Below are positions 57,941 through 58,290 of a stretch of DNA of 64,000 nucleotides, one piece after another. Origin of the DNA: an uncultured Bacilli bacterium (GTDB lineage: Bacteria > Bacillota_I > Bacilli_A > RF39 > UBA660). The position numbers and the translations under genes are program-made. Position 1 is the first letter of the stretch, and the number at the start of each line of letters is the position of its first letter. The stretch lies in contig CAKOLH010000003.1 in NCBI GenBank assembly GCA_934096105.1, positions 1,721 through 65,720 of the forward strand, written 5' to 3'. The notes under the pieces were generated by a model. It was not told the origin of the DNA. It did not search any database and saw only the letters and a list, made by a program, of their open reading frames with translations.

Positions 57941-57970
57941 TTGACTATAGTACATAAATTAGTATATAAT
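57941..57970 (+). promoter_or_regulatory. strong sigma-A type promoter of the structured small-ORF RNA
   Basis: TTGACT (57941-46), 18-nt spacer, TATAAT (57965-70). Confidence 0.65.
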
Positions 57971-57976
57971 GTCTGC

Positions 57977-58232
57977 AGGTAATCACCTATAGGTGTTCTC
58001 TCCTTTTTTAACTAAAGTTATGGAAGGAGTGATTCTATGTTTCAAAGTTTTCTGAAAAGGGGGTTTTGGAATGGAATTAGTCCTTGCTCTTGCATGGATT
58101 ACTCTAGTTGTACTATTTTTGATAGATAGTCATAGCCGTAGAAGATAAGTAAAATAGAGCACCTCAGAGGAAGCACTCTATAACACAATTATGGAGAGAA
58201 CACCCTGAAACATATAGGTGTTACCTATTTTT
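57977..58232 (+). other. ~255-nt structured transcript (candidate type I toxin mRNA) closed by a 5'/3' long-range helix
   Basis: 57992-58003 ggtgttctctcc pairs perfectly with 58193-58204 ggagagaacacc. 57977-57991 aggtaatcacctata pairs with 58213-58226 tataggtgttacct (14 bp, one bulge). It ends in an ataggt-gtt-acctat hairpin plus T5 (58214-58232). Confidence 0.5.
58071..58148 (+). CDS. 25-aa hydrophobic peptide, candidate type I toxin
   Basis: Not in ORF track. SD aaggggg lies 7 nt upstream. MELVLALAWITLVVLFLIDSHSRRR is one TM helix with a basic C-terminus. An alternative overlapping 30-aa ORF (58037-58129, MFQSFLKRGFWNGISPCSCMDYSSCTIFDR) also has a good SD (aggag). Confidence 0.4.
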   Translation: MELVLALAWITLVVLFLIDSHSRRR

Positions 58233-58290
58233 ATTATAGGCAAAATCTCTTTCCATATATAATTATATGCTATTTCCATTAAAAAATCAA
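58150..58290 (-). ncRNA. putative antisense RNA with its promoter (candidate antitoxin)
   Basis: On the minus strand: TTGATT (58290-85), 17 nt, TATAAT (58267-62). The transcript would run antisense across the 3' arm of the long-range helix. The hairpin at 58181-58154 has two G-U pairs only on the minus strand (C/A mismatches on the plus strand) and is followed by a U-rich tract. Confidence 0.3.

Follow-up and report, generated by a model that had tools for sequence, protein, structure and literature searches.

A Candidate Orphan Type I Toxin–Antitoxin-like Module with a 3′ Antisense Overlap in the sigK–yqeG Spacer of an Uncultured Gut Bacilli Bacterium

Introduction

In type I toxin–antitoxin systems, a short structured mRNA encodes a small, usually hydrophobic protein that is toxic when expressed and whose translation is held off by the structure of the mRNA; an antisense RNA encoded in cis, which has a promoter and terminator of its own and is complementary to the toxin mRNA, neutralises the toxin. 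Across the class, the mRNA measures 150–400 nucleotides (nt), the peptide 20–60 amino acids (aa) and the antisense RNA 60–200 nt (T1TAdb, PMC8594479), and the Gram-positive families have their antisense RNA placed 3′ (PMC8594479). The Bacillus subtilis systems bsrE/SR5, bsrG/SR4 and txpA/RatA have mRNAs of 255–294 nt and toxins of 30–59 aa with a transmembrane (TM) helix; the duplex formed in their 3′ overlap is cut by RNase III, which leads to decay of the mRNA, and SR4 also tightens the sequestration of the Shine–Dalgarno (SD) sequence (PMC6562991, PMC3834814). Here we describe a locus between the genes sigK and yqeG in a 64,000-nt stretch of DNA, called the window below, from an uncultured Bacilli bacterium (assembly GCA_934096105.1, contig CAKOLH010000003.1, positions 1,721 to 65,720). 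Its layout and predicted folds suggest an accessory, orphan type I toxin–antitoxin-like module with 3′ overlap, a reading to which we assign a probability of about 0.55. New orphan type I candidates turn up regularly; to our knowledge, routine annotation does not find type I modules, and hardly any are known from uncultured gut Firmicutes.

The locus contains a 25-aa open reading frame (ORF25), the candidate toxin, and a 30-aa frame (ORF30) that overlaps it. With a predicted mRNA of ~258 nt, a 25-aa peptide and a predicted antisense RNA of ~108 nt, it falls within the size ranges of the class. Given the predicted transcript ends, the mRNA is short, structured and encodes a small hydrophobic protein, and according to thermodynamic prediction its structure would hold off translation of the toxin. 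The antisense RNA is predicted from a promoter with 10 of 12 consensus matches, of a kind common in this DNA, together with a strand-specific terminator hairpin. As modelled, the layout fits the Gram-positive 3′-overlap arrangement (PMC8594479, PMC6562991).

In its mode of working, the module would be closest to the three B. subtilis systems named above, which also have a Firmicute host. The predicted mRNA lies within their size range, the ribosome-binding site (RBS) is partly or wholly sequestered in them as it is here, and in both cases the system sits in accessory or foreign DNA. There are also differences. The B. subtilis antisense RNAs are longer (163–222 nt versus ~108 nt) and their overlap enters the toxin frame, whereas here it stops at the stop codon; the peptide is shorter here than the 30–59 aa of those systems; a closing helix that joins the two ends of the mRNA and a second overlapping frame are present here, unlike in the B. 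subtilis systems; and the module is a solo insert of 452 nt rather than a part of a prophage. There is no sequence similarity to the B. subtilis toxins or to the Rfam models of their antitoxins, and in the antisense-bound model of this RNA no clear equivalent of the SR4-type tightening of the SD sequence was seen.

Other features recall the hok/Sok (mok) and aapA/IsoA systems. These share the long-distance lock joining the 5′ and 3′ ends and the multiple anti-SD elements (PMC6733600), and, as in them, RBS-masking hairpins would form already on the nascent transcript (PMC6733600). ORF30 resembles mok in being upstream of the toxin frame, out of frame with it and overlapping (PMC6562991, PMC8594479). 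On the other hand, hok and aapA belong to Proteobacteria and Epsilonproteobacteria, their antisense RNAs act on the 5′ or translation-initiation region and not on the 3′ end, and their long-distance interaction carries the anti-SD of the toxin, whereas the helix found here only competes for the anti-SD of ORF30. They have no sequence homology to the locus.

The systems Fst/RNAII and SprA1/SprA1as are likewise Gram-positive, with a 3′-side antisense RNA that overlaps the mRNA but not the toxin frame (PMC8594479), and their toxins are also small hydrophobic peptides with a charged tail. They differ in having a functional pairing outside the overlap, at the 5′ end; such extra pairing at the 5′ or RBS region was considered for our locus and rejected, being at chance level (p ~0.38). 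No match of the locus to these families rose above noise in Pfam, NCBIfam or Rfam.

Results

Structure of the Predicted Sense RNA

The features of the locus are collected in Table 1. Their ensemble is exceptional, although the single promoters and repeats are not. The TTGACT-18-TATAAT promoter proposed in the first-pass annotation of this DNA was recovered by a consensus scan; matches of this quality (11/12) occur 11 times in the window versus 7.6 times in shuffled sequences, and taken singly such a match is not unusual.

The fold of the RNA stands out far more clearly. The sense RNA, folded as 261 nt, has a minimum free energy (MFE) of −83.8 kcal/mol, compared with −57.5 ± 4.7 kcal/mol for shuffled sequences (z = −5.6). 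In a regression of MFE on GC content that covered 982 windows (259 nt each, both strands of the 64 kb), the plus strand of the element gave the lowest residual of all (−37 kcal/mol, −4.95 standard deviations (sd)). The minus strand of the element is less stable by 11.5 kcal/mol.

Much of the architecture is set by a closing helix that spans the ends of the RNA, pairing its first 26 nt with its last 33 nt, from one base after the predicted start to three bases before the T5 run. Of the helix described earlier as 12 base pairs (bp) plus 14 bp separated by an 8-nt internal loop, the inner part of 12 perfect bp (57992–58003 with 58193–58204) and the loop, located on the 3′ side (58205–58212), are as stated, and the outer part (57978–57991 with 58213–58225) consists of 13 bp with one bulged U. 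It should be noted that perfect 12-nt inverted repeats number five in the window against ~7 expected, so that such a repeat is not unusual by itself. The transcript had also been said to end in a short hairpin followed by T5: the T5 run is there (58228–58232), and the local hairpin is weak (−4.3 kcal/mol, z = −0.8), so that termination of the sense RNA would depend on the long closing helix together with U5.

The 5′ arm of the helix carries an anti-SD element, CUCUCC(UUUU), which has two partners. The alternatives are GGAGAG of the 3′ arm (P = 0.77) and SD1, the RBS of ORF30 (P = 0.23), in states of almost equal energy (−83.3 and −83.7 kcal/mol).

Table 1. Features of the sigK–yqeG region in window coordinates; transcript ends are predicted.
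Feature	Position	Strand	Remarks
Sense promoter TTGACT-18-TATAAT	57941–57970	+	11/12 consensus match; predicted start ~57977
Predicted sense RNA, candidate toxin mRNA, ~258 nt	57977–58235	+	Predicted ends; strongly structured
Closing helix, 5′ arm	57978–58003	+	Contains the CUCUCC(UUUU) anti-SD
Closing helix, 3′ arm	58193–58225	+	12 bp, 8-nt loop, 13 bp; U5 next, 58228–58232
SD1 GGAAGGAG, RBS of ORF30	58022–58029	+	Mean P(unpaired) 0.04–0.17 in all modelled states
ORF30 MFQSFLKRGFWNGISPCSCMDYSSCTIFDR	58037–58129	+	SD1 with 7-nt spacer; out-of-frame overlap with ORF25
Hairpin sequestering SD2 (58057–58063) and the ORF25 start codon	58030–58080	+	22 bp, 8 of them G-U
ORF25 MELVLALAWITLVVLFLIDSHSRRR, candidate membrane toxin, 25 aa	58071–58148	+	SD2 AAGGGGG with 7-nt spacer; TM-like helix and basic tail
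Antisense promoter TTGATT-17-TATAAT	58262–58290	−	10/12 consensus match; predicted start ~58255
Predicted antisense RNA, ~108 nt	58146–58255	−	−35 kcal/mol, z = −4.3
Antisense terminator hairpin, then UUUUACUUAUC	58154–58181	−	12 bp, 3 of them G-U; U-rich tract follows
Strain-variable segment, 452 nt, containing the whole module	57820–58271		In L068, L073 and L017 (empty alleles), homology of the flanks stops at 57819 and restarts at 58272
sigK	57051–57761	−	236 aa; 317 bits against the SigK equivalog TIGR02846 (cutoff 298.65)
yqeG	58354–58875	+	YqeG-family phosphatase; 101 bits (cutoff 89)

Reading Frames and Their Ribosome-Binding Sites

Both frames described in the first-pass annotation, the 25-aa one with its aaggggg SD at 7-nt spacing and the overlapping 30-aa one with an SD of its own, are present. 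ORF25 contains an uncharged hydrophobic run of 16 residues and has an RRR tail. Among the ATG-initiated frames of 18–60 aa in the 64 kb, it is the only one to have both an SD-like motif and at least 15 uncharged, hydrophobic residues in a row, for which shuffled sequences give 0.1; when the basic tail is required as well, shuffles yield 0.0 such frames.

The start region of ORF25 lies in a hairpin that is stable on the plus strand only (−14.6 kcal/mol, z = −4.0, versus −3.3 kcal/mol, z = −1.2, on the minus strand). Its pair probabilities are mostly 0.85–1.0, falling to 0.41–0.64 for two pairs at the start codon. The 5′ strand of this hairpin, which buries SD2 and the start codon AUG2, is made up of the first codons of ORF30, and on this model ORF30 may be a leader frame.

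We modelled the accessibility of both RBSs for the complete RNA, for nascent transcripts ending at four different points, and for an RNA whose 3′ 90 nt were blocked to imitate bound antisense RNA. In every thermodynamic model, P(unpaired) for SD2 and AUG2 was 0.05–0.14 (0.05 for SD2), and, together with the low values for SD1 (Table 1), this predicts that both RBSs are sequestered in the full-length, nascent and antisense-bound states alike.

Predicted Antisense RNA

On the opposite strand, the promoter and terminator scans reproduced the convergent arrangement claimed earlier, in which an antisense RNA launched from TTGATT-17-TATAAT would cover the 3′ arm of the closing helix and the 3′ untranslated region (UTR). 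Over the final ~88 nt of the sense RNA, which comprise its 3′ UTR and the 3′ arm of the helix, the predicted antisense RNA is a perfect complement; it ends at the stop codon of ORF25. Its promoter straddles the junction of the strain-variable segment, with the −35 hexamer in flanking sequence common to empty alleles and the −10 hexamer in the insert.

The hairpin that would end this RNA has −14.0 kcal/mol on the minus strand (z = −4.3) and −5.5 kcal/mol on the plus strand (z = −1.3). It is the sole terminator-like site of the region (minus strand, 58181–58154), with 0.1 expected from shuffles. The earlier description of it as specific to the minus strand and adjoining the stop codon holds; its G-U pairs are three, not two. 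Adjacent hairpins that are each stable on one strand only, as predicted here and for the start region of ORF25, are the best in-silico evidence that both strands may be transcribed.

Binding of the antisense RNA might free the anti-SD to close SD1. The modelled effect is small (P(unpaired) of SD1 from 0.17 to 0.11), and such an antisense-driven switch of the anti-SD to SD1 is speculation.

Occurrence and Variation among Related Strains

The spacer between sigK and yqeG measures 593 nt in the window, versus 100–210 nt in ~15 related species, where the two genes are divergent neighbours. Within the species, contigs with identical YqeG carry one of two alleles, a spacer of 593 nt (L067, L069–L072 and L074–L076) or of 174 nt (L068 and L073); with collapsed duplicates included, ~17 of ~21 such contigs are filled and ~4 are empty. 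Empty alleles have ~34 nt in place of the 452-nt segment, the left edge of which is fuzzy, as 57842–57868 may be homologous to the filler of the empty alleles. The promoter region of yqeG, which is conserved, lies in the right flank common to filled and empty alleles.

The same slot receives other cargo in related strains. Besides a filler of 34–51 nt and the 452-nt module, it holds a 1.6-kb insert with membrane-anchored proteins (L002, probably also L078 and L084), a gene for a 300-aa protein (L082) and an MFS transporter gene (L085). In L002 the cargo of 1588 nt has the same breakpoints as the insert in the window; the other cargo loci have less homology, or none, around the slot (57817–58279 in the window). 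Other genes also occupy the slot in L078, L082, L084, L013, L027 and L028. The occurrence of different inserts in one slot, together with filled and empty alleles, indicates that the element is an accessory cassette and that the sigK–yqeG spacer is a recombination hot spot.

Alignment to the empty alleles revealed no clean target-site duplication at the ends of the insert. A direct repeat with 17 of 20 matching positions, 57860–57879 (ATTTGTATTATAGCCAGAAT) and 58227–58246 (ATTTTTATTATAGGCAAAAT), stands on either side of the promoter and the RNA, and a second short repeat, CTCTTTCCAT at 58247 and CTATTTCCAT at 58270, is close to the right junction. These repeats could be traces of insertion, yet they are at chance level in AT-rich DNA (~0.26 expected by estimate); the 20-nt direct repeat, tried as a target duplication, was rejected on this ground.

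Two further filled alleles have diverged flanks, namely L077 (YqeG 97% identical) and L079 (96%). Compared with the window, the DNA of sigK, yqeG and yqeH is 93.6–96.3% identical in these alleles, versus 99.1% and 98.0%, respectively, for the 452-nt segment. From these alignments, the stronger conservation of the segment fits either purifying selection on nearly every base or a recent spread of the cassette by recombination. Both hexamers of the sense promoter are invariant in 10 of 10 filled alleles. ORF25 is unchanged in L077 and L079, and in L069 and L071 it carries S22R (C58136A), which lengthens the basic tail.

The variation set consists of five near-identical haplotypes, too few for covariation, and every variant in the RNA is compatible with the fold, the MFE of the haplotypes ranging from −82.7 to −86.8 kcal/mol. 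C57984A shifts the bulge in the outer helix; A58028G changes a U-A pair into U-G in the stem between the anti-SD and SD1; A58210C and a 1-nt insertion fall inside the internal loop. C58174T and A58175G, found in L077 and L079, turn G-U pairs of the minus-strand terminator into Watson–Crick pairs (−13.5 to −16.5 kcal/mol). A 9-bp pairing between the internal loop (58205–58212) and AUG1 was considered and dropped because L079 alters the loop.

Searches for Relatives of the Module

In Rfam, no match to the whole window reached the gathering score, and a permissive search of 57750–58400 (E up to 10) returned chance-level matches only, the best being GibS with 27.7 bits against a cutoff of 115; none of the antitoxin RNAs RatA, SR4-like, RNAII/Fst, SprA1as, Sok, Sib and IstR was matched. 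For the three small ORFs, NCBIfam gave nothing at E up to 10 and Pfam gave a single noise match (NOG1, E = 0.16), with no match in either collection to the toxin families Fst, TxpA/BsrG, BsrE/H, PepA1, Hok, Ldr, TisB and Ibs. By these profile searches the locus belongs to no profiled toxin or antitoxin family and is an orphan for now. The resemblance to Fst, TxpA, BsrG and PepA1 noted in the first-pass annotation therefore extends to layout and sizes, and is one of shape only.

At the nucleotide level, blastn and nhmmer found no module-like sequence in 66 loci encoding YqeG relatives and only same-species copies in the 85 related loci. Phage and plasmid collections gave no match to the element with blastn in its distant mode; viral contigs contained neither an exact 20-mer of it nor the codon-degenerate peptide pattern, and JGI metagenome contigs matched neither of two codon-degenerate, hydrophobic-tolerant peptide patterns. 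The 64-kb window holds no second copy.

Genomic Setting

The window is a low-GC chromosome segment (~27% GC) of an uncultured gut lineage, whose nearest relatives by YqeG are UMGS1185 (L017, 99% identical) and Clostridium sp. CAG:302 (L002, 96%). Both neighbouring genes are as originally assigned, since their profile scores exceed the cutoffs (Table 1).

The skin element, which interrupts sigK in B. subtilis, carries the type I systems txpA/RatA and bsrH/as-bsrH (PMC6562991). In the window sigK is uninterrupted, and the candidate module is located 58 nt upstream of its start codon; the closeness of the module to sigK, compared with the skin-borne txpA and bsrH, is probably a coincidence. The insert substitutes everything past −58 of sigK, and the promoter context of sigK could thus change.

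Downstream of yqeH there is a 123-aa ORF (60656–61027), the counterpart of which in related contigs has a Ribonuclease_3 domain (PF00636) only and is Mini-III-like. It is relevant here because cleavage of an RNA duplex belongs to the mechanism proposed below.

Two other structured intergenic regions, at 43.3 and 47.5 kb, were considered as paralogues of the module and found to be unrelated. In degree of structure, the stretch 43291–43550 ranks second in the window on both strands (−4.0 and −3.5 sd), and it has no Rfam match; it lies between an ATPase-like ORF (42019–43293) and a UvrD/PcrA-like helicase gene (43553–45634) and contains a 10-bp hairpin (43466–43440). The region 47451–47840 lies upstream of genes for an ArsR-like regulator (47849–48175) and a P-type ATPase (48165–50201). 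An inverted repeat of 12 perfectly matching nt (47613/47714) occurs in it, together with hairpins at 47516–47546 and 47758–47734 and, at 47781, an 11/12 promoter whose −10 is extended; these may be operator or terminator elements.

Discussion

We propose the following model of the module. The strong promoter would drive an mRNA of ~258 nt whose 5′ and 3′ ends zip into a helix of ~25 bp, which would protect both ends and, with the U5 run, would probably terminate transcription. The mRNA would encode a membrane peptide of 25 aa, with a single helix and a basic tail, whose RBS and start codon are locked in the 22-bp hairpin, while the RBS of ORF30 would be masked by the CUCUCC anti-SD, so that the mRNA would be translationally silent by default. 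The convergent antisense RNA of ~108 nt would pair with the last ~88 nt, and the duplex would most likely be cut by a double-strand RNase, leading to decay of the mRNA, as in txpA/RatA, bsrG/SR4 and bsrE/SR5. If the supply of antisense RNA dropped, the stable mRNA could become active, and the peptide, which we infer to be toxic, would then damage the membrane. The route of activation may be a coupling of the mok/hok kind: since the first codons of ORF30 mask SD2 and AUG2, a ribosome translating ORF30 would open the hairpin and expose the start of ORF25.

Several observations weigh against a toxin–antitoxin module. The closing helix leaves the RBS of the toxin uncovered, unlike in hok or aapA, and it is local hairpins that cover it. 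A 10/12 match such as the antisense promoter is commonplace in AT-rich DNA (4 found versus 5.8 expected). The antisense overlap halts at the stop codon, leaving ORF25 and both RBSs uncovered; complementarity between antisense RNA and mRNA outside the overlap is no better than in shuffled controls (p ~0.38), and the antisense-bound model has no clear structural switch. Finally, in the collections searched, homologues occur only inside one species cluster, with at most 2% divergence, and the high conservation could come from recent horizontal spread instead of selection.

The alternative that survives best, though we regard it as unlikely, is a gene under regulation whose product is a small, non-toxic membrane protein. 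ORF25 would then be a benign accessory peptide that might modulate, for instance, signalling or a transporter, and its mRNA would be under tight control by structure and a cis-antisense RNA. This explanation rests on the same anatomy, and the presence of the filled allele in the majority of contigs (~17 of 21) is compatible with a mildly useful gene. Against it, double RBS sequestration, an end-to-end helix and a convergent antisense RNA together are the hallmark of type I toxin mRNAs (PMC6733600, PMC8594479), a package unusual for harmless small proteins, and the insert contains no partner gene for the peptide.

A pair of non-coding RNAs is, in our estimate, quite improbable. Here the structured plus-strand RNA would act as a small RNA, with or without the antisense RNA, and both ORF25 and ORF30 would be incidental. 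It is true that the strongest statistics are those for RNA structure and that the one variant in ORF25 is non-synonymous (S22R). An incidental ORF with a well-spaced SD, an uncharged hydrophobic run of 16 residues and an RRR tail, however, is expected at most 0.1 times per 64 kb, the best-defined hairpin buries exactly the RBS and start codon of ORF25, and no Rfam family is matched.

We give little credence to the view that the element is an inert relic of a mobile element, in which the 5′/3′ helix would represent the terminal inverted repeats of an element resembling a miniature inverted-repeat transposable element (MITE), or a scar left by a larger insert. In its favour are the position of the insertion in a hot spot, the 26-bp inverted repeat and the weak 17/20 direct repeat (57860–57879 and 58227–58246). 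The inverted repeats (57978 and 58225), however, are off the insertion ends (57820 and 58271), lying 158 nt and 46 nt inside, and the direct repeat is within chance (~0.26 expected by estimate). A MITE would have terminal inverted repeats at the insertion ends, a target duplication and multiple copies; here the ends of the insert have no such repeats and no clean duplication, and no second copy appeared in the 64 kb, the 85 related loci or the phage, plasmid, viral and metagenome collections. Strand-specific hairpins that depend on G-U pairs, together with low divergence, argue instead for an RNA-level function.

A 6S-like or other housekeeping RNA, the fallback offered in the first-pass annotation, or a cis-regulatory leader of yqeG can be practically discounted, because, despite the long closing helix with internal loops and the position of the element upstream of yqeG on the same strand, the element is lacking in ~15 related species as well as in some strains of this species that have identical YqeG, the promoter region of yqeG, itself conserved, falls within the right flank shared by filled and empty alleles, and neither 6S nor any other Rfam family is matched even at E = 10.

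Returning to the type I module, a bolder proposition, which we consider doubtful, is that the locus founds a new family of type I systems, one that belongs to uncultured gut Bacilli with reduced genomes (the CAG-302 / UMGS1185 group). Such a family would join traits hitherto reported from different lineages: a convergent 3′-overlap antisense RNA in the Gram-positive style, an end-to-end lock in the style of hok and aapA, and a mok-like leader ORF that opens the hairpin over the toxin RBS, all on a 452-nt solo cassette moving between strains via the slot beside sigK.

The most noteworthy parts of the finding are the strain polymorphism, the cargo slot beside sigK and the possible coupling through a leader ORF. 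If verified, the case would add a new toxin family and a Gram-positive system that uses an end-to-end mRNA lock, possibly with a leader ORF. If the locus is not a toxin system, it would still be a predicted pair of sense and antisense RNAs that is strongly structured and variable among strains. Strains with identical neighbouring genes that carry or lack the cassette amount to a natural experiment, and the cargo slot in the sigK–yqeG spacer is useful for strain tracking and for following gene flow in these small genomes.

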